Position numbers and translations under genes: made by a program. Shown here one piece after another: positions 1-29,551 of a stretch of DNA of 32,000 nucleotides. Location: assembly GCF_000709555.1 (NCBI RefSeq), contig NZ_CP006873.1, positions 270,001 through 302,000 of the forward strand, given 5' to 3'. The stretch comes from Candidatus Saccharimonadota bacterium. GTDB lineage: Bacteria > Bacteroidota > Bacteroidia > Flavobacteriales > Blattabacteriaceae. The notes under the pieces were generated by a model that saw only the letters and a list, made by a program, of their open reading frames with translations, did no database searches and was not told the origin of the DNA. Numbering within the stretch: the first letter of the stretch is position 1; each line of letters begins with the position of its first letter.

Positions 1-1157
1 TTCAGTGTAACAACGTAGTGCACGCATAATCTACTCTGATCTATCATCTTTTTAGCTTCTTTAGCATTAGTTCCTTGTAACCGTACAATCAAAGGGACAT
101 GTATTCCTCCTTCTATAATTTGATTGGCAGCTATGATACCTTGGGCAATGGTATCACAACGGACAATCCCTCCGAAAATATTAATGAATATAGCTGAAAT
201 GGTCTTATCTTTCAATAAAATACAAACAGCTTTTTCGACTCGATGTGCATCTACGGTTCCTCCTACATCAAGAAAATTAGCGGGACTTACCCCAGACAAT
301 TTAATCAGATCCATAGTCGCCATAGCTAAACCTGCCCCATTAACAATACAGCCAACATTACTATCAAGTTTTACAAAATTCAACCCTGCTTTCGCGGCCT
401 CCACTTCATAAGGATCTTCCTCATCTATATCACGCAGAGCAGCATAGTCAGGATGTCTATAAAGAGCATTATCATCTATAACGACTTTAGTATCAACAGC
501 TATAATCTTATTATCAGAAGTTTTTAATAATGGATTAATCTCAATCATGGAAGCGTCTGATGCAACATAAGCCTTATAAAGCGTTTTTATAAAAATGATG
601 AATTCTTTGAATACCTGGGTAGGTAATTTCATATTAAAAGCTATCTTTTTCGCTTGAAAGTCAAATATCCCAAAGTACGGGTCTATCTCTTCTATCAAAA
701 TTTGTTCCTGTGATTCTTTAGCTATTTGTTCAATATCTACACCTCCTTCTTGAGAATACATGATTATATTTTTTTCTTTATTTCGGTCTATGAGTATAGA
801 TATATAGTATTCTTTAATCTCACTTTTCCCTTTATAATAAACATCTTGTCCTATCATTACACGATGTACTAGTTTTCCTTCCTTCGGTGTTTGAGGTGTA
901 ATCAAACGCATCCCTATAATTTTTGAGGATATTTCATAGACCTCTTTCAGAGATTTCGCCATTTTTATACCTCCTCCTTTTCCACGTCCTCCAGCATGTA
1001 TTTGCGCTTTGACTATCCAAATATTGGACCCGGTGGTTTTAGTTATTTTTTTTGCCATAGTTATGGCTTCATATGGTGTTCGTGCTACCTTCCCCAATGG
1101 AACCTTTATTCCAAAAGAGTGAAGTATGTTCTTTCCTTGATATTCATGTAAATTCAT
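1..1157 (-). CDS. sucC: succinyl-CoA synthetase beta subunit (3' end runs off the window start)
   Basis: Absent from the ORF track because there is no stop inside the window. Minus-strand translation from ATG 1157-1155 gives MNLHEYQGKNILHSFGIKVPLGKVARTPYEA...IVKAQIHAGGRGKGGGIK. Near position 1 it still reads ...IIEGGIHVPLIVRLQGTNAKEAKKMIDQS. These are canonical SucC N-terminal and C-terminal motifs. Confidence 0.93.
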   Translation of the reverse strand, partial: MNLHEYQGKNILHSFGIKVPLGKVARTPYEAITMAKKITKTTGSNIWIVKAQIHAGGRGKGGGIKMAKSLKEVYEISSKIIGMRLITPQTPKEGKLVHRVMIGQDVYYKGKSEIKEYYISILIDRNKEKNIIMYSQEGGVDIEQIAKESQEQILIEEIDPYFGIFDFQAKKIAFNMKLPTQVFKEFIIFIKTLYKAYVASDASMIEINPLLKTSDNKIIAVDTKVVIDDNALYRHPDYAALRDIDEEDPYEVEAAKAGLNFVKLDSNVGCIVNGAGLAMATMDLIKLSGVSPANFLDVGGTVDAHRVEKAVCILLKDKTISAIFINIFGGIVRCDTIAQGIIAANQIIEGGIHVPLIVRLQGTNAKEAKKMIDQSRLCVHYVVTL

Positions 1158-1355
1158 AAGACTTTATTATGAATGATGAGTTAATAAAAAGATTTTTCAA
1201 TCCGCGCTTTATGATTATAAAATTAAGTCGGGGGCAATTTCCTTCCGTGATAACGAGGATACGGCCTTGCGTAAAAAATAATAATAATTTGTCTCTATAT
1301 TTTCCTGTTACCTAAACCCTGATATATTTATCTATTTTTAATAGATAAAAAATTT

Positions 1356-3531: not shown

Positions 3532-3692
3532 ATAAGTATTAATAGGAACCCACATATCGAAATGATAAAACCCAAACAATATTTGAAAGGATTTTCAGAC
3601 AAAAAAGATGTTGTTGGATTGAATAGTATGTAGATATATAGTACTATAAGTAAAATAAACGCACCTAAAAATAGGTATAGAATTTTTTTCAT
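3507..3692 (-). CDS. hypothetical small two-TM membrane peptide (may be an AT-bias artefact)
   Basis: 61-aa ORF downstream of Thx on the same strand, very hydrophobic (F/I/L/Y rich). It overlaps the rnpA 3' end by 25 nt. I recognise no family. Confidence 0.3.
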   Translation of the reverse strand: MKKILYLFLGAFILLIVLYIYILFNPTTSFLSENPFKYCLGFIISICGFLLILIYLLIKNK

Positions 3693-3745
3693 TGTTTAAA
3701 GGATGATATCTACACCTTCTACTATGTACTCTCTTTATAGTCATC

Positions 3746-3853
3746 CTATATTTTTTTTTTAAGACGTTTGATATTTTTTGGGCTCAACCGAGTGTTCCCA
3801 TAAGTCCCTCTATTAATTTTTCCACGACGTGTTTTTTTATCTCCCTTTCCCAT
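3746..3853 (-). CDS. 30S ribosomal protein Thx (35 aa, below the ORF-track cutoff)
   Basis: Hand translation of the minus strand from ATG 3853-3851 gives MGKGDKKTRRGKINRGTYGNTRLSPKNIKRLKKKI* with stop at 3748-3746. The GKGD++TRRGKI.RGTYG signature is that of Thermus/Bacteroidota Thx. Confidence 0.8.
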   Translation of the reverse strand: MGKGDKKTRRGKINRGTYGNTRLSPKNIKRLKKKI

Positions 3854-3896
3854 GTTATATGTATTTTTTTATCGTATCAAATATATAAAAATCGTG

Positions 3897-5123
3897 TTAA
3901 ATAAACAACATTTCGCAGGCTTTAGTAATATACTCACAAAGTTTTTCAGCTTCTTCTATGGTATTATAAACAGCAAAACTAGCTCTAATGGTTCCAATTG
4001 TTCCTAAAGCTTTCATAAGCGGTTGGGCACAATGATGACCTGTGCGTACTGCAATTCCCATTCTATCTAGAAGACTACCTAGATCAAACGGGTGTACTCC
4101 AGATAAATTAAAAGATACGATAGTGGAACGTGGTGCAGTATCTGCATACTGGGAAAGACCATTTAATGAATTTAAATGACGACTTACTTCTTTTATCAGA
4201 TAATCTTCGTAAGATTTAATCCTATCCAGACCTATATTTTCGATAAAAAATAATGCGCTTTCCCAAGCAATAATTCCAGCAATATTTGGGGTTCCAGCTT
4301 CTAACTTAAAAGGTAATTCAGCATAAATAGTTTTATCAAAATTTACCTCTTTAATCATTTCACCTCCTCCTTGCCATGGAGAAAATTTTTCAAGCAAATT
4401 CTTTTTTCCATATAATACTCCTATACCTGTAGGACCATACATCTTATGAGCTGAAAAAGCATAAAAGTCAACATCTAAATCTTGGACATCTATTTTAGTA
4501 TGAGCAGGTGCTTGAGCTCCATCAATAAAAACCCAAGCACCTTGATTATGTACTTTTTGGATAATTTCTTTGATAGGATTTATTACTCCTAACACGTTAG
4601 AAATGTGATTTATAGAAACGATCCGAGTCCGTTCACTTAAAAGTCTATCTAAGACTTCTATACATAAACAACCATTTGTTTCTATTGGAATAATATTCAA
4701 ATGGGCGTTTTTGCGTTGGCATAACATTTGCCATGGGACAATATTAGAGTGATGCTCAAGTTCTGAAAGTATAATATCATCTCCTTCATGTATAAAATCA
4801 TTCATAGCGTACGCTATTAAATTAATAGATTCAGTTGTACCCTTAGTAAATATTATTTCCTGCACACTAAAAGAATTGATAAATCTGTGTATATGCTCAC
4901 GACTTCTTTCCATAGCTTCTGTAGCCACTTGACTCATATAGTGAATCCCACGATGAACATTAGAATTCATAGTGCTATAATATTTATTTATAGCACTGAT
5001 CACTTCCATAGGTTTTTGAGTGGTGGCTGCGTTGTCTAAATATATCCAAGGGTGATCATAGACTTTCTTAGAAAGAATAGGAAAATTTTTTCTTATGTCA
5101 CGTATTTCTGATGGTGATAACAT
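3897..5123 (-). CDS. sufS: cysteine desulfurase SufS (class V aminotransferase)
   Basis: 408-aa ORF. Has the PLP lysine region FSAHKMYGPTGIGVLYG and the C-terminal catalytic RTGHHCAQP. Confidence 0.95.
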   Translation of the reverse strand: MLSPSEIRDIRKNFPILSKKVYDHPWIYLDNAATTQKPMEVISAINKYYSTMNSNVHRGIHYMSQVATEAMERSREHIHRFINSFSVQEIIFTKGTTESINLIAYAMNDFIHEGDDIILSELEHHSNIVPWQMLCQRKNAHLNIIPIETNGCLCIEVLDRLLSERTRIVSINHISNVLGVINPIKEIIQKVHNQGAWVFIDGAQAPAHTKIDVQDLDVDFYAFSAHKMYGPTGIGVLYGKKNLLEKFSPWQGGGEMIKEVNFDKTIYAELPFKLEAGTPNIAGIIAWESALFFIENIGLDRIKSYEDYLIKEVSRHLNSLNGLSQYADTAPRSTIVSFNLSGVHPFDLGSLLDRMGIAVRTGHHCAQPLMKALGTIGTIRASFAVYNTIEEAEKLCEYITKACEMLFI

Positions 5124-5131
5124 TCTGAGGT

Positions 5132-6415
5132 TTATAAATAAAAATTAAGATAGACATTCATTTTTTTACTTATGATTTCATAAAGATGTTTCTTTAGTTT
5201 TGGAATAGGAATATGTTCTAACACCTCTTGAACAAAAGCAAACATCAATTGTGCACGAGCCTCTTTTTCAGAAATCCCCCGGGAACGAAAATAAAAAAGA
5301 GCTTGTTCGTTAAACTGACCAATAGTACAACCGTGAGTGCATCGTACATCGTCTGCAAAAATTTCAAGGTGAGGCTTTGTCTTTACAGAAGTTTTTCTGG
5401 ATAGTAAAATATTGTTATTCCTTTGAAAAGCATCAGTTTTTTTTGCTTCTTTCCGAACTATTATTTTTCCATTAAAAACACCTTTAGCTTTATCATCAAA
5501 TATCCCTTTGTAGATTTCATGACTTTTACCATTAGGATAAGCATGTTCTATTACAGTATGATGATCCACCAAAATTTCTCCATGAAGAATACTAATCCCA
5601 TTTAGTTTTGAACATCCTTTTGAATCACGTTGATAAATATGTAAATTGTTCCTAACTAGTTTTCCTCCAAAAGAAAAAGTACTTATAGAACACTTGCTTT
5701 TAAACTTTTGATAAATAAACGTCTGATCTATTAAAGAAGATTTAGAAATATCATTCTGGATTTTAAAATATTCTAAATGACTATGAGCATCCGTATAGAT
5801 CTCTGTTACAGAATTGCTTAATGGAATATATGATCCTAATGTATAATGTTTTTCTATAATTTCGGCGTAAGATCCTTTTCCTAAAATTACCAAGTTTCTC
5901 GGAAAAAGAAGTGTATAGTGGGAATCTACCCCACTAGAAAAGTATACTATTTGTATAGGATGTTCTACTCTGAGACCATCTGGTATGTGTATATAGGCCA
6001 CATCTTGGGCTAAAGCGGTATTCATAGCATTGAATCCATCTTGCGATGAAGAAAGTTTAGCATAAAAAGCTATAATATAAACATATTTTTCTGGAGAAAG
6101 TCCATGAGAAAAAACACTAATGTTTTTGTCTTGGGGCTGGGAAAACCGTGCACTATACACCCCATTAACAAAGACTAATCGGGAACTATCAGTAGGATAT
6201 AATAAATGAGGCTGTATATCTTTCCATTCTATAGAAGTCTTATGAGAAAACATATAATCACGATTTAATAATGGGATGTTCCATTCGTCAATCGTGGTCA
6301 ATACTTTTTTTTTAAATGTTTTTATAGCGGAAAAACGAAGTGTCTGAAAATATTCATGCCAAGGTCTTTTCTTCTTGAAATAAGAAGAGATAATCTTTTT
6401 TTTTATATCTATCAT
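5132..6415 (-). CDS. sufD: Fe-S cluster assembly protein SufD
   Basis: The C-terminal block EIFADDVRCTHGCTIGQFNEQALFYFRSRGI is SufD. The track start at 6433 is a TTG inside sufC. The ATG at 6415-6413 overlaps the sufC stop as TAATG, suggesting translational coupling, so I prefer that start. Confidence 0.9.
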   Translation of the reverse strand: MIDIKKKIISSYFKKKRPWHEYFQTLRFSAIKTFKKKVLTTIDEWNIPLLNRDYMFSHKTSIEWKDIQPHLLYPTDSSRLVFVNGVYSARFSQPQDKNISVFSHGLSPEKYVYIIAFYAKLSSSQDGFNAMNTALAQDVAYIHIPDGLRVEHPIQIVYFSSGVDSHYTLLFPRNLVILGKGSYAEIIEKHYTLGSYIPLSNSVTEIYTDAHSHLEYFKIQNDISKSSLIDQTFIYQKFKSKCSISTFSFGGKLVRNNLHIYQRDSKGCSKLNGISILHGEILVDHHTVIEHAYPNGKSHEIYKGIFDDKAKGVFNGKIIVRKEAKKTDAFQRNNNILLSRKTSVKTKPHLEIFADDVRCTHGCTIGQFNEQALFYFRSRGISEKEARAQLMFAFVQEVLEHIPIPKLKKHLYEIISKKMNVYLNFYL

Positions 6416-8610: not shown

Positions 8611-8611
8611 A

Positions 8612-8929
8612 TTAAGCGTAAAAACTCCCTACGCAACCACATTCAGCATTCGGGTTGTAAAAACCTACAGATTTTATTTCTCCTTCCTTAAATACTTTGT
8701 CTTTAGATAAACCTTCTTCTTGCATCAATAAATTTTTTTTTATACAGAATAATCACTGTAGTGAGTGTCTATATATATACTATTTCTCTTAGTGAAAGTC
8801 TAAAAGATCATAACGTCTCATATCCGTTCCTACTAAACATATTGGGTTGGTCTCGTCCTTTTACACGAGCGTTCTCAATTTCTAGGAAATCTTGCTTCAG
8901 TCTATCGATAGAAATTAACCTGCATACAT
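8612..8929 (-). pseudogene. sufA: A-type Fe-S carrier (SufA/IscA/HesB) pseudogene
   Basis: The minus strand ends ...[37 protein letters not shown] (stop 8614-8612), which is the IscA C-terminal GF.F.NPNA..CGCG.SF motif. This frame is closed by a stop at 8752-8754. Upstream the other frames read ISIDRLKQDFLEIENARVKG and RYDLLDFH, separated by stops. The total span of about 318 bp equals a full-length gene of about 106 codons, but no ORF of 60 aa or more survives. Confidence 0.75.
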
Positions 8930-9058
8930 AATGCCATGGTATCCGCTTTTAGGTTATAAAAATTTTACTTTTGTCAAGCTATATCATTACGATTCCGGTA
9001 GAGGGGCTTTCGTGTTACGTTATATCCCTGCGTTTGCAATACTTTAAAAAAAAACTAA

Positions 9059-14437: not shown

Positions 14438-15856
14438 ATGAAAGTCTTTTCTATTAAAGAGTTACTGGATGAAAGTCCATCTCTTATGACAAAAGAAGTT
14501 TTTGTAAATGGTTGGGTAAAATCTGTTAGAAGTCGACGTTTTATTGATTTGAATGATGGTTCTACTATAAAAGATTTACAAATAGTAATAGAAGGGTCAA
14601 AATTTGCTTCAGATTTTCTAAAAAAAATTACTATAGGCATTGCTTTACGAGTTTTTGGAACTATTGTAATAAGTTTAGGAAAAAAACAATCTATTGAAAT
14701 TATTGCTAAAGAAATTAAAATATATAGCGAAATATCCCATAATTACTTACGTGGAACTATTTTACAACCCAAACATCATAGCTTCGAAAAGCTTCGAGAA
14801 CAAGCTCATCTTCGTTTTCGGACCAGATTGTTTAGTGCTATTCTGAGGATTAGACATCAATTGGCTTTTTCTATACATCATTTTTTTCATAAACATAATT
14901 TCTATTATATACATACTCCCATTATTACTACTTCGGACGCTGAAGGCGCTGGTAAAATGTTCCGAATTACTTCTTTTAACCTGGAAAATATTCCTAATCA
15001 TGGTTATCTAGATGATTTCTTTGGGTGTTCTACATATCTGACCGTGTCTGGACAACTTGCTGGAGAAACTGCTGCTATGGCTTTAGGAAAGATTTATACG
15101 TTTGGACCTACTTTTCGTGCAGAAAATTCCAATACTTCACGACATCTATCCGAATTTTGGATGGTAGAACCTGAAATGGCCTTCTATGAATTAGAAGACA
15201 ATATGGATTTAGCCGAAACTCTTCTCAAGAGTCTCCTAAATGATGTTTTAAATAATTGCGTTGAAGATTTAGATTTTCTTAATTGGTCTTTTATTAAAAA
15301 TCAGAAACCAAAATTTGAAGGACAAAATATTGTCGAAATTTTATACTTTATAAAGCAACACTCTTTTGCTAGGGTTAGTTACAGCGAAGCTATTGAGATT
15401 TTATTATCTAGTAACTTAAATAAGAAAGGGAAATTTAAATATCCAATACGCTGGGGAATGGATTTACAATCAGAACATGAACGATTTTTGGTAGACAAAT
15501 ATTTTGGGGTCCCGGTTATTATATTTGATTATCCAGCAGACATTAAGGCTTTTTATATGCGAATAAATGATGATAGTAAGACCGTTAGAGCCATGGATGT
15601 CCTATTTCCTAGAATAGGAGAAATTATAGGAGGGTCTCAACGTGAAGAGAGATATGATATTTTATTAAATCGTATGAAAGCATTTCAGATCGATGAAAAA
15701 GTCCTTTGGTGGTATTTAGACACGCGGCGGTTTGGTTCAGCTCCACATAGTGGGTTCGGTTTAGGTTTGGAACGTCTTGTGCAATTTACTACAGGTATGA
15801 GCAATATTAGAGATGTCATTCCTTATCCTAGAACTCCTAAACACGCAGATTTTTAG
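14438..15856 (+). CDS. asnS: asparaginyl-tRNA synthetase
   Basis: 472 aa. Class IIb motifs FRAENSNTSRHLSEFWMVEPE, GGSQREER and GFGLGLERL. Confidence 0.96.
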   Translation: MKVFSIKELLDESPSLMTKEVFVNGWVKSVRSRRFIDLNDGSTIKDLQIVIEGSKFASDFLKKITIGIALRVFGTIVISLGKKQSIEIIAKEIKIYSEISHNYLRGTILQPKHHSFEKLREQAHLRFRTRLFSAILRIRHQLAFSIHHFFHKHNFYYIHTPIITTSDAEGAGKMFRITSFNLENIPNHGYLDDFFGCSTYLTVSGQLAGETAAMALGKIYTFGPTFRAENSNTSRHLSEFWMVEPEMAFYELEDNMDLAETLLKSLLNDVLNNCVEDLDFLNWSFIKNQKPKFEGQNIVEILYFIKQHSFARVSYSEAIEILLSSNLNKKGKFKYPIRWGMDLQSEHERFLVDKYFGVPVIIFDYPADIKAFYMRINDDSKTVRAMDVLFPRIGEIIGGSQREERYDILLNRMKAFQIDEKVLWWYLDTRRFGSAPHSGFGLGLERLVQFTTGMSNIRDVIPYPRTPKHADF

Positions 15857-19417: not shown

Positions 19418-19979
19418 AAGTGGACTAATCCAATAGAAACATTATGTCCACAGAATCCAACGTTTATAGTGCGTTTTTGCATTATATGATTGGTTATCAT
19501 CAGTAATCTGATTATGGCTCAAGAAGGTAATAATGAGGCTCAATGACCAGTCATAGATTTAGTAGAATTAATATTAATTTGATATACGAAGACTTTTTTT
19601 ATTGCTTTAATTTCTGTCATATCTACTAAAGGAGTTGAAGTTACGTGCTACATTTGTGCAAGAGCATTTTTCATCATCCCTATGCCAGCAAGTTCTCCTA
19701 GAACAAATAATCCGTAGAGAAAGGTCTTGAAGAAGTCATTATTTCTTGTAGAAAGAGCATTAGAAGCACAAGATGATACTGTAGCAGGGACCTTTGAGAT
19801 GAGTATCAAAGAAAGGATTATTACCTGGAAAATAATTGAAAAGAGATTTTTCATGACCAACCAAATAACACCTATTCTATTTTTATTTTCCTTAGCCGCA
19901 TGCAAACTGAGTTTTAAATGTATTAAAATAAGTAATAGGAGCTTACTCCTCCAATAGGACCCCTAATCTTGTAATAACT
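19418..19979 (-). pseudogene. fabF: beta-ketoacyl-ACP synthase II pseudogene (heavily deleted)
   Basis: Minus-strand fragments appear in FabF order across at least two frames. They are VITRLGVL (cf VVVTGLG), NRIGVIWLV (cf RIGAAIGSG), NALSTRNND (cf ALSTRNDNP) and GLFVLGELAGIGMM (cf DGFVLGDGAGMLVLE). These are followed by [27 protein letters not shown] (cf NAHGTSTPAGD..A.AVK..F) and [10 protein letters not shown] (19543-19566, stop 19540-19542; cf [12 protein letters not shown]). The span is about 560 bp against about 1.25 kb for an intact gene. Confidence 0.85.
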
Positions 19980-19985
19980 ACCTTT

Positions 19986-20228
19986 CTATCTTGTGGCAAG
20001 ATGTATATAATCTATAACATTCTGGATGGTAAATATCTTTTCTGCGTCCTCATCTGGTATTGAAATGTTAAATTCTTTTTCAAATTCCATAATAAGTTCT
20101 ACATTGTCTAAAGAATCCGCACCGAGATCTTTAATAAAATTGGCATTAGGCTGTATTTCATTATCATTTATAGCTAACTTGTCTATAATTATTTTTTTTA
20201 CTTTTTCTTGAATATCTTCTTTAAGCAT
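19986..20228 (-). CDS. acpP: acyl carrier protein
   Basis: 80 aa. The phosphopantetheine site [17 protein letters not shown] is intact. Confidence 0.95.
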
Positions 20229-20364
20229 ATTGTTAAGGTTTGCTTCCTACACTATTTTTTTTTACATGAAGTAATCCTCTTTTTATGGTAAGCTTTCACC
20301 TTTTTCTAAAATAGATATCTAACAATTGAAAAGAATTAGATGACGTAGCATGTCCACTTGAGAT
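20229..20364 (-). pseudogene. possible ATP synthase epsilon (atpC) remnant, very tentative
   Basis: It lies directly downstream of the atpD relic, where atpC sits in atpDC operons. Only a weak resemblance is visible: the SSNSFQLLD fragment compared with G.F.IL..H of epsilon N-termini. All frames are interrupted by stops. Confidence 0.2.
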
Positions 20365-21216
20365 TTATCCTTCATAAATTGTTTTATACTTTTTTTCTAC
20401 AATAACTTGTTGTATAGTTCCTTTAAGATTAAAGGCAACTTCAGGAATATGAACATCTAGAATCATGAAATGGGATCTTTAATGTCTACTAATTCCCTAG
20501 GAATTGTTCTGCTACGTTAAAAGGTTGAGAAAGAAAACGTTGCTTCTTCGCTTAGTTCATCCAGACCGAGATAATGTCTTGTAACTCGGTGTGCACAACG
20601 ATTTAAGTAGTTAATATTCTCGAAGTCGAGTCTACCTAAAGAAGAAATTTTTCTGTATAAAAAGTAGCTGTAATATCGTCGGCGTGAGAAACTATCCGTT
20701 CTTGCATTATACTCATTTAAGAGGATAAAGTGGGTTGATTACCTGCCTTACAAAAAATAGAACATCTCGTCCTTTACCACTGTCACGATAATATTCAGCT
20801 ACGGAAAGGTTCAAAACTGCCTTAGAGCTTCTCTATCAACTCATTACCCAGATTTCACGAAGCAAATCATTACTCTCTCTTGTACGCGAGCCAACTCAAG
20901 CAAAGACCGAAATTCCTTGATAAGCTATATTATTTATTAGTTACTGAATTATAACAGTTTTTCCTACACCAGCATACCAATTTTTACGACCTTTGCATAA
21001 GGTTCAACTAGATCAATAACTTTCGTCATTGTAGAAAACTTGGGCGATGGTCCAACTACATTCAATAATCGCGACAGAAACAGTAATAGGCATTCCTATC
21101 TTTAAACCATCAGTAGAATCCATGGTACTTCTAATATTAAATCTTTTTCTGAAGAAGAATTATTAAAAATGAGGACCTATGATTTGTATAATACTACCCT
21201 CTATTATTTCATACAT
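20365..21216 (-). pseudogene. atpD: F1-ATP synthase beta subunit pseudogene
   Basis: Minus-strand translation gives these fragments in order: MYEIIEGSIIQIIGPHF**, MDSTDGLKIGMPITVSV, VIDLVEPYAKG. Next comes Walker A [43 protein letters not shown] (Walker A at 20956-20973). Then follow VAEYYRDSGKGRDVLFFV, LGLDELSEE, ELVDIKDPI and HIPEVAFNLKGTIQQVIVEKK. There are several frameshifts, many in-frame stops and large deletions (852 bp against about 1.5 kb). Confidence 0.9.
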
Positions 21217-21224
21217 TAACTTGA

Positions 21225-22280
21225 TTATCTATTAAGAATATATTGACTTAAAAAGTCTCCTACTTCTTCTGTCCCTAAGGATTTATGCTTACAAATATCT
21301 ACAGTAGATTTTTTATTATGTATAGAATTCGCCACTGATTTTCTTATTTCTTGAGCTTCATTTGACAATTCGAAATAATCAAGCATCATAGCAGCTGAAA
21401 GCACACATCCTAAAGGATTAGCTATATTTTTTCCTTCGGCTTGAGGATAAGAGCCATGTACTGGTTCAAAAATAGCATTTTTTCTACCAATAGAAGCTGA
21501 AGGTAATAACCCAATAGAACCAGTAATTACACTCGATTCATCTGATAAGATATCTCCAAACATATTTTCCGTTAAAATGATATCAAATCTAGAAGAATTA
21601 AGAATAATCTGCATACTAGCATTATCTACAAGAAGAAAATCCACTATGACTTCAGGATAATCTATAGAGATTTTCTTAATAATTTCTCGCCATAGTCGTG
21701 AGGTTTCTAACACATTTGCCTTATCTACTAAAGTCAGTTTTTTTTTTCGTAAAAGCGCTGCTTTAAAAGCGTCTCGTCCAATACGTTCTATTTCATCGGA
21801 AGAATAGCAGCAATAGTCATAAGCTTGTTTTCCATCAACAGAACGGCCTTTTTTACCAAAATAAATCCCACTAATTAATTCCCGATAGATTATGAAATCT
21901 GTTCCTTTTATATATTCCATTTTTAATGGAGAGGAATTCATTAATAAATCATAAGTAGTTATAGGACGTATATTACAATAAAGATCCATAACTTTCCTAA
22001 TTTTTAGTAACCCTTGTTCAGGTCTCATTTTCGTATCACTATCATAGTTAGGATTTCCAACAGTTCCCAATAATACTGCATCACTCTCCATACAAATTTC
22101 TAGTGTTTCTTTAGGCATCGGATCTCCTGTCTTTTGAATAGCTATAGCGCCAATCAAAGCTTCTTGGTAAACGAAATTATGATTAAACTTCTTAGCTATA
22201 GCATTCAATACTTTTATTGATTGTCGCATAATTTCAGGTCCAATACCATCCCCGGATAAAACTGCTATATTTTTTTTCAT
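21225..22280 (-). CDS. leuB: 3-isopropylmalate dehydrogenase
   Basis: MKKNIAVLSGDGIGPEI and NMFGDILSDE. The track start at 22325 is a TTG inside leuD. ATG 22280 gives the normal N-terminus. Confidence 0.95.
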   Translation of the reverse strand: MKKNIAVLSGDGIGPEIMRQSIKVLNAIAKKFNHNFVYQEALIGAIAIQKTGDPMPKETLEICMESDAVLLGTVGNPNYDSDTKMRPEQGLLKIRKVMDLYCNIRPITTYDLLMNSSPLKMEYIKGTDFIIYRELISGIYFGKKGRSVDGKQAYDYCCYSSDEIERIGRDAFKAALLRKKKLTLVDKANVLETSRLWREIIKKISIDYPEVIVDFLLVDNASMQIILNSSRFDIILTENMFGDILSDESSVITGSIGLLPSASIGRKNAIFEPVHGSYPQAEGKNIANPLGCVLSAAMMLDYFELSNEAQEIRKSVANSIHNKKSTVDICKHKSLGTEEVGDFLSQYILNR

Positions 22281-28399: not shown

Positions 28400-28814
28400 T
28401 AGCTAGATCATAAGATTTCATACCAAACCCACAGATAGAACCTTTACAAACAGCAGAAATTAAGGACCTATGACGAATTTCTGAACGTGAATAAACATTA
28501 GTAAGATGTACTTCTACTACAGGTATCTGAATAGCACGAATAGCGTCAGCTATTGCTAAAGAAGTATGGGTATAAGCACCTGCATTTAATACAATCCCAA
28601 TAGATATTGTACTTTTCTTATGTAAAAAATCAATAAGTGTTCCTTCATGATTACTTTGCATATAATCCAATTTACAATTGGATCGAAAATATTTGTTTTT
28701 AAGGACATGAAGATATTTTTCCATAGATTCATTCCCGTAAAGTTTTGGTTCTCGTTTCCCTAGAAGATTTAGATTAGGTCCATTTATTATGGTTATTTCC
28801 TTTAAATATCTCAT
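28380..28814 (-). CDS. aroQ: type II 3-dehydroquinate dehydratase
   Basis: 144 aa with INGPNLNLLGKREPKLYG and VEVHLTNVYSRSEIRHRS. It has a 20-nt convergent overlap with engB and an ATGA overlap with the rluB stop. Confidence 0.94.
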   Translation of the reverse strand: MRYLKEITIINGPNLNLLGKREPKLYGNESMEKYLHVLKNKYFRSNCKLDYMQSNHEGTLIDFLHKKSTISIGIVLNAGAYTHTSLAIADAIRAIQIPVVEVHLTNVYSRSEIRHRSLISAVCKGSICGFGMKSYDLAIMSFLS

Positions 28815-29551
28815 TTTTGAGATACAAATTTTTCAAGTGATTTTCTTTCTTTTTCAGTAATAATTCTCCATTGTCCTTTTTTAAGAGATTTCTTGGTAAG
28901 CCCACAAAACGATATTCTATCAAGATTGACTATTTTATAACCTAAATATTCAAAAATTCTCCTAACTATTCTGTTCCACCCTATATGTAAAGTCAAGCTG
29001 ACTCTATTTTTTGGAATTCCCGGTATATAAGAAATTACATCTATTTTAGCTTTCCCCTCAGGGAAATTAATTCCTTTTTTAATTGTTTCAAAATCAAAGA
29101 TTTTAAATTTTCGGTTTAGTCTAACATGATAAATTTTTCTTATCTTATATTTTGGATGTATCATTTTTTCAGCTAAATCCCCATTATTAGTAAATAACAA
29201 AACACCTGTGGTTTGTTTATCCAGTCTTCCTACTGGATAAAGTCTATATGGTGAAGCATTCGATACCAGATCCATTACAGTTTTTCTATTTTTCTCGTCA
29301 CGAGTAGTAGTGATAAAACCTTTAGGTTTATTTAAAAGGATGTACACTTTTTCTTCTGGATAAAGAAATCTATTATAAAATTTGACTCGATCATTAGGAA
29401 ATACTCTGTAACCAGGTTCTTTCACAATTTTCCCATTTATTTCTACTATTCCGGTTTTTATAAATGTCTCAGATGTTCTTCTAGAAGAGACTCCAGAATG
29501 GGCAAGATACCTATTTAATCGAATTCCTTTTAGGATTTTTTTTAATTTCAT
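28811..29551 (-). CDS. rluB: pseudouridine synthase, RsuA/RluB family
   Basis: 246 aa. N-terminal S4 domain (RLNRYLAHSGVSSRR) and catalytic GRLDKQTTGVLLFTNNGDL. Confidence 0.9.
   Translation of the reverse strand: MKLKKILKGIRLNRYLAHSGVSSRRTSETFIKTGIVEINGKIVKEPGYRVFPNDRVKFYNRFLYPEEKVYILLNKPKGFITTTRDEKNRKTVMDLVSNASPYRLYPVGRLDKQTTGVLLFTNNGDLAEKMIHPKYKIRKIYHVRLNRKFKIFDFETIKKGINFPEGKAKIDVISYIPGIPKNRVSLTLHIGWNRIVRRIFEYLGYKIVNLDRISFCGLTKKSLKKGQWRIITEKERKSLEKFVSQK

Follow-up and report, generated by a model that had tools for sequence, protein, structure and literature searches.

Relics of atpD in the leuB-acpP spacer of Walczuchella genomes and the probable age of the gene's inactivation

ATP synthase erosion in flavobacterial symbionts of scale insects

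The loss of ATP synthase from Candidatus Walczuchella monophlebidarum has already been published, in 2014 and again in 2025. When the LLAX genome was described (Rosas-Perez et al. 2014; PMC3971599), atpA, atpB, and atpG were reported to be pseudogenes, and atpF alone seemed to be conserved. The genes atpC, atpD, atpE, and atpH were listed, together with fabF, as absent relative to Sulcia. Table 3 of that study credits Walczuchella with "few subunits" of the enzyme and gives it as "absent" in Uzinura. The same study found frameshifts in homopolymer tracts, some of which may be tolerated. The main text of a later comparison of seven Walczuchella genomes (Choi et al. 2025; PMC12188211) reports that in every genome energy-production genes are undergoing loss or pseudogenisation and that all the genomes are collinear, and presumes that ATP comes from host mitochondria.

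Another flavobacterial symbiont of scale insects, Uzinura diaspidicola from armoured scales, likewise lacks a functional ATP synthase (PMC3971599). Its genes are reported to be completely gone, whereas Walczuchella represents an intermediate stage in which relics are still visible. A reference for the original arrangement is provided by Sulcia (Karelsulcia) muelleri CARI, in which the gene order is atpD-atpC-acpP-fabF.

The DNA considered here, which we call the window, is a stretch of 32,000 nt from the chromosome of Candidatus Walczuchella monophlebidarum LLAX, a symbiont of the scale insect Llaveia axin axin with a genome of 309,299 bp. Organism and phenomenon are those of Rosas-Perez et al. 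(2014), but atpD and fabF, which are given as absent in that study, are found here as relics. The erosion of ATP synthase is also the one treated in the main text of Choi et al. (2025), where ATP is presumed to be host-derived. Two points are added to the published picture. Both atpD and fabF persist as relics, and the knockout of atpD predates the crown group. Neither main text (PMC3971599; PMC12188211) states that the atpD lesion is older than the divergence of all the sequenced lineages. We hold with high confidence that the spacer between leuB and acpP is a nonfunctional, vertically inherited remnant of atpD, probably with a scrap of atpC, that lies in its ancestral position and was dead before the crown group arose.

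An earlier note on this DNA, made by a model from the sequence alone, had argued that the organism would have no functional F1Fo ATP synthase if the dead atpD were its only copy. This agrees with the published gene losses, and the absence of a second atpD is taken from PMC3971599.

The leuB-acpP spacer and the ancestral gene cluster

Five proteins encoded in the window are identical to those of LLAX (AsnS AID37534, AcpP AID37537, Frr AID37533, RpoN AID37535, and LeuB AID37538.1). The LeuB cluster at 90% identity contains one member per published Walczuchella genome, and LeuB is 97% identical to that of the Candidatus Walczuchella endosymbiont of Icerya purchasi. The gene content of the window (suf, leuABCD, several aminoacyl-tRNA synthetase genes, rpoN, and others) is that of a reduced flavobacterial nutritional symbiont.

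Both genes that border the spacer are intact and lie on the minus strand. Upstream, leuB (21225..22280) adjoins the relic and is annotated as a protein of 351 aa (NCBIfam leuB, E 6e-127; 100% identity to AID37538.1). Downstream, acpP (19986..20228) encodes 80 aa (NCBIfam acyl carrier protein, E 1e-31) and is identical to AID37537.1. The 996 bp between them (20229-21224) have no annotated protein product, because the accessions of acpP (AID37537) and leuB (AID37538) are consecutive. The LLAX record may still mark a pseudogene at this place, as a feature that carries no protein id.

The earlier note had interpreted this ORF-free gap as a dead gene for the beta subunit of F1 ATPase, and this reading is confirmed. 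With Sulcia AtpD as the tblastn query, linked HSPs (sum E 2.8e-26) are found at the relic and nowhere else in the window. As had been predicted for such a search, the alignment is fragmented over several frames (-3/-1/-3/-2/-3). A purpose-written aligner of protein to DNA, tolerant of frameshifts and long deletions, gave a score of 533, compared with 3.5-37 for eight shuffles of the same DNA and 35.5 for the opposite strand. A crude stitched translation of the relic retrieves F1-beta chains from the PDB (phmmer, E 6e-18), as well as Bacteroidota AtpD proteins of about 500 aa from a large protein collection. The best reference is AtpD of the Geopemphigus symbiont, with which 71.2% of aligned codons agree.

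The relic occupies 20380..21216 on the minus strand. Reading 20229-21224 in the three frames of that strand recovers the AtpD landmarks in the correct order, and all those listed by the earlier note, which it had described as spread over several frames, are present where it placed them. The relic begins with ATG at 21216-21214, followed by MYEIIEGSIIQIIGP and then by MDSTDGLK, SRLLNVVG, KVIDLVEPYAK, and AGVGKTV. The last of these is the remnant of the Walker A motif (20953..20973, minus strand), which three-frame reading and frameshift-aware alignment both place directly downstream from a frameshift, with the preceding LFGG lost. The same two approaches identify GLDELSEE (20544..20567, minus strand) as what is left of the beta subunit's DELSEED loop. 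Toward the 3' end, LGLDELSEE is followed by HIPEVAFNLKGTIQQV, with TAA at 20367-20365. At this end the landmark HxPExAFxxKG was read correctly in the earlier note, whereas the final KTIYEG*, taken there as the end of AtpD, more probably belongs to a weakly recognisable remnant of atpC.

The order of parts is that of Bacteroidota AtpD (Geopemphigus aphid symbiont, Sulcia), with a barrel, a P-loop domain, and a C-terminal domain. The ordered blocks extend from residue 1 to residue 495 of the Sulcia reference, so that three domains are represented in the correct order. Walker A, GERTREG, DVLFF, DELSEE, and PEVAFxxKG can still be recognised, and identity to Bacteroidota AtpD is about 70% over the codons that can be aligned. 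In contrast to an intact atpD, the relic retains only 55% of the codons, carries 11 frameshifts and 5-6 stops, has Ser in place of the catalytic Glu, and offers no translatable ORF.

Of the 495 codons of Sulcia AtpD, 271 can be aligned to the relic, and 189 of those match. The other 224 (45%) have been lost in 23 separate gaps, which is close to the loss of about 40% of the gene length proposed earlier. There are 11 frame changes and six stops relative to this reference, and five other AtpD references yield similar values (271-275 aligned codons, 5-6 stops, and 11-12 frameshifts). The continuous frame of about 495-505 codons is absent, and the longest ORF within the entire spacer is 39 aa.

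The Walker A motif GGAGVGKT(V) is reduced to AGVGKTV, and a TAA codon lies four codons past it. That codon (20941..20943, minus strand) corresponds to AtpD codon 168 and converts IQELINN to IIQ*LINN; the string ATTCAGTAACTAAT that contains it is present in five of seven genomes. A second TAA (20603..20605, minus strand) corresponds to codon 383, in SRILTT*IVV, and its string ACTACTTAAATCGTTGT is present only in LLAX, DRPI, and DRCO. The Glu of GERTREG is catalytic in F1 ATPase. The relic reads *VGSRTRES at this motif, with a Ser codon at 20887..20889 on the minus strand (E188S), a position that is at least 97% invariant among 119 Bacteroidota AtpD sequences. Among the 168 aligned positions that are invariant at this level, 31 have changed, including E188S and the GG-to-VV replacement in KGGKIG.

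Four same-frame stops lie no more than about 47 codons from the P-loop (20943-41, 20898-96, 20838-36, and 20835-33). The earlier note had counted four in-frame stops over about 45 codons. All four are real, but the last two lie off the ancestral frame, which, judged from the other genomes, is shifted where they sit (VDREAL). Given ORFs of at most 39 aa, the loss of 45% of codons, 11 frame changes, and the replacement of the catalytic Glu, it is near-certain that the relic encodes nothing.

Between the atpD relic and acpP lies a short stretch that is probably, though with weak support, a remnant of atpC, the gene for the epsilon subunit (20291..20379, minus strand). It reads IYEG*ISSGHATSSNSFQLLD...KGE and aligns with the better-kept Drosicha sequence YEGEISSGHAPSYNSFQLLDHHAP/ILEKGEIKF (L083, about 5090-5230). 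Frameshift-aware alignment to Chryseobacterium AtpC gave z scores of 4.3 for LLAX and 3.4 for DRPI relative to shuffles. The score of a 172-nt test of the putative atpC stretch was not above shuffles, and X-masked translations of the stretch had no Pfam match, PF02823 included. The assignment is supported by gene order, because atpC lies between atpD and acpP in Sulcia.

The arrangement in the window follows the Sulcia order, with the atpD relic, the short stretch, intact acpP, and then a spacer of 568 bp that holds a relic of fabF. This gene, for beta-ketoacyl-ACP synthase II, is represented between acpP and gltX at 19418..19985 on the minus strand (tblastn E 1.6e-9). Frameshift-aware alignment scored 271, compared with at most 25 for shuffles, and recovered 180 of 416 codons with seven frameshifts and two stops; ATVSSCAS is still readable. 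Relics of fabF, 269-808 bp in length, are located in the acpP-gltX spacer in all seven Walczuchella genomes. Because the Sulcia order is matched and a fabF relic lies downstream from acpP, the atpD relic is at the ancestral position. It is thus a vertically inherited gene still in its original place rather than a transferred fragment.

Of the ancestral atpD-atpC-acpP-fabF cluster, acpP is the sole surviving gene. It is well conserved (95.9% nucleotide identity to ICPU) despite dead ancestral neighbors on both sides. Fatty-acid synthesis has been reported to be absent in LLAX (PMC3971599). The product of acpP is retained as an orphan acyl carrier protein in this genome.

Relics in seven genomes and the age of the knockout

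The corresponding spacers were compared in six other Walczuchella genomes (ICPU, ICSE, CRMU, CRGE, DRPI, and DRCO) and in a Darwin Tree of Life assembly from Icerya purchasi. A homologous atpD relic is present between leuB and acpP in seven of seven sequenced Walczuchella genomes. The spacer measures 712-858 bp in the six others and 996 bp in LLAX, where atpD and atpC, if both were intact, would be expected to take up about 1.9 kb. Frameshift-aware AtpD scores for the six other relics are 184-280.

The pieces that have been lost differ by lineage. In the Drosicha symbionts the whole P-loop region is gone, but FRFIQAGSEVSA, HLDATTVLSRK, and LDELSEEDKQSVNRA, all of which are lost in LLAX, have been kept. 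The seven relics together still cover much of AtpD, which shows that their ancestor held a much fuller copy of the gene.

Other lesions are held in common. The GAA-to-TAA change at codon 168 is shared by LLAX with ICPU, ICSE, CRMU, and CRGE, and the region is deleted in both Drosicha symbionts. LLAX and the four Icerya and Crypticerya symbionts also lack the same 24 bp, with the junction AAGGCAGTTT identical in each. The TAA at codon 383 is common to LLAX and both Drosicha symbionts, and the remaining four genomes have lost the region. The phylogeny given in the main text of Choi et al. (2025; PMC12188211) has two subclades, Drosicha plus Llaveia and Crypticerya plus Icerya. The same paper dates the family split, which sets apart the Coelostomidiidae with their symbiont Candidatus Hoataupuhia, to about 125-150 My. 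Since TAA168 and the 24-bp deletion occur in both subclades, these lesions span the basal split. Moreover, however the three groups are rooted, one or more of the nonsense codons must be placed in their common ancestor. Provided that neither TAA168 nor the 24-bp deletion is homoplasious and that the topology is as published in that main text (PMC12188211), the shared lesions show that atpD was already dead in the last common ancestor of the seven sequenced Walczuchella.

A separate estimate is consistent with this timing. The changed invariant residues imply about 0.09 substitutions per site in LLAX and 0.16-0.24 in the Icerya and Crypticerya symbionts since constraint was lost, values that are rough and biased by the choice of alignment. 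Taken in this approximate sense, the change after loss of constraint exceeds the path through the common ancestor, which fits a knockout before the crown group.

The mode of decay is most easily seen by comparing LLAX with ICPU. Flanking genes are 94-98% identical with almost no indels, and 10.8% of four-fold sites differ. The relics match at 69-78% when gaps are counted, with mismatches at about 9-10% of aligned columns, and the relic HSPs contain 142 gap columns as compared with almost none in genes. Substitutions in the relic have thus accumulated at roughly the neutral rate, together with a great excess of indels, as in DNA free of purifying selection.

On this evidence the last common ancestor already had an inactivated atpD, with a nonsense codon and the 24-bp deletion as the least of its lesions. 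Each lineage has afterwards lost different pieces through small and large deletions, and substitutions have occurred at about the rate of four-fold sites. The probable background is relaxed selection on ATP synthase in a symbiont that obtains its ATP from the host bacteriocyte, which agrees with the published erosion of other atp genes.

One might instead suppose that the common ancestor still had an intact atpD, and that each lineage inactivated it separately once another ATP synthase subunit was gone. Most deletions are indeed lineage-specific, and the fact that the seven relics jointly cover much of the protein could be read in this way. Independent inactivation would nevertheless have to turn GAA into TAA at codon 168 and create the same 24-bp junction in both basal subclades, and also yield the identical TAA383 in LLAX and the Drosicha symbionts. 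We consider it very improbable.

An equally improbable scenario is that the relic has been co-opted as a promoter, leader, or noncoding RNA for acpP. Its appeal is that acpP requires a promoter, with the end of leuB lying 1 kb upstream, and that the 25 nt directly 5' of the acpP start codon (20229..20253, minus strand) are conserved. This segment, AGTGTAG[G/T]AAGCAAACCTTAACAAT, aligns in seven of seven genomes with one variable base and is presumably the start region for acpP translation or transcription. Beyond the proximal 25-60 nt, the co-option proposal conflicts with neutral divergence and lineage-specific deletions, and with a 28-bp tandem-repeat expansion in one lineage (ICSE). Rfam and tRNA scans of the atpD relic revealed no RNA gene. 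A scan of the relic for sigma-70-type promoters, using a model unsuited to Bacteroidota promoters, performed no better than on shuffles. In alignments, constraint within the spacer appears to be limited to the 25 nt adjoining acpP.

The repeat in ICSE is an observation of its own. Within the atpD relic of this genome (L086, 4710-4883), a 28-bp unit, ACGTACTGATTTGCTTCGAGAAATTCTT, corresponding to NDLLREI codons, is present in 6.2 tandem copies with 99% identity. Each of the other six genomes has the unit only once, which points to a recent expansion inside dead DNA.

Less likely still is that atpD remained functional until shortly before the present. This had been the suggestion of the earlier note, which reasoned from a local GC content of about 39%, above that of the neighboring genes, in an AT-biased genome. 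The measurement itself is sound, with 39.2% GC at 20521-20640 compared with 31.9% for leuB and 28.0% for acpP. The relic as a whole has 34.2% GC, as compared with 31.5% for all coding sequences and 20.8% at third codon positions of intact genes, and is therefore short of mutational equilibrium. A high GC content for want of time, along with the identity to intact AtpD that persists at about 70% of alignable codons, would fit a young pseudogene.

The composition of the gene provides a different account. Intact atpD is intrinsically GC-rich, as in Sulcia, where it has 28.8% GC against 22.9% for the locus, and the raised GC of the relic is a legacy of this composition. With only about 0.1 substitutions per neutral site between LLAX and ICPU, GC decays slowly, and in lineages that evolve at this pace the relic can have fallen by a few points at most. 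Because intact atpD is GC-rich and little neutral change has accumulated, GC content does not discriminate between an old and a young relic. What decides against a recent inactivation is that seven of seven genomes hold a relic and that lineages on either side of the deepest split have nonsense codons and a deletion junction in common.

Finally, an artefact of the 2014 assembly, or transcriptional slippage or editing that leaves the gene effectively intact in the cell, scarcely merits consideration, for even if some homopolymer frameshifts may be tolerated (PMC3971599), 45% of codons are missing amid 11 frame changes and 5-6 stops, and six independent assemblies from other hosts, one of them from the Darwin Tree of Life, carry homologous relics with the same lesions.

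Implications and other features of the window

An ancestral knockout of atpD carries little weight beyond annotation, other than as a one-locus confirmation that Walczuchella depends on its host for ATP. It does indicate that what remains of a pseudogene can survive in a tiny genome for as long as the crown group has existed. This persistence bears on how the "accelerated pseudogenisation" of Walczuchella is to be read. We suggest tentatively, at somewhat under even odds, that fabF as well as atpD had died by the time of the common ancestor of the sequenced Walczuchella, with relics of both still recognisable in every lineage, and that part of the unusual pseudogene richness in these genomes of 280-310 kb reflects the very slow removal of ancient dead genes and not only a recent burst. 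If so, the lineage-specific deletions would make such relics usable for calibrating deletion rates and for reconstructing ancestral genes.

Other gaps in the window were also considered. The apparent gap at 1-1355 was rejected as a relic, since it holds an intact sucC-like ORF (succinyl-CoA synthetase beta; 1-1160, minus strand) that runs off the window edge. Two ORF-free spacers, at 8611-9058 (448 bp, 33.5% GC) and 3532-3896 (365 bp, 28.2% GC), may be relics that have decayed beyond recognition; X-masked translations of the first in all frames had no Pfam match. Stops that seemed to interrupt the ICPU orthologues of aroQ, gltX, and serS proved to be alignment artefacts, and these ORFs are intact.

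Asparagine tRNA synthetase has been stated to be missing from the LLAX genome (PMC3971599). In contrast, the window contains an intact gene for asparagine--tRNA ligase at 14438-15856 on the plus strand, encoding 472 aa (NCBIfam E 7e-181) and identical to AID37534.1.

An RluF/RsuA-like pseudouridine synthase gene (28811-29551, minus strand; 245 aa) is intact in LLAX. In the Icerya purchasi symbiont (L001, 2975-3475), the corresponding gene is represented by about 500 bp with no ORF of at least 90 aa, and only 164 columns can be aligned between the two, at 77% identity.
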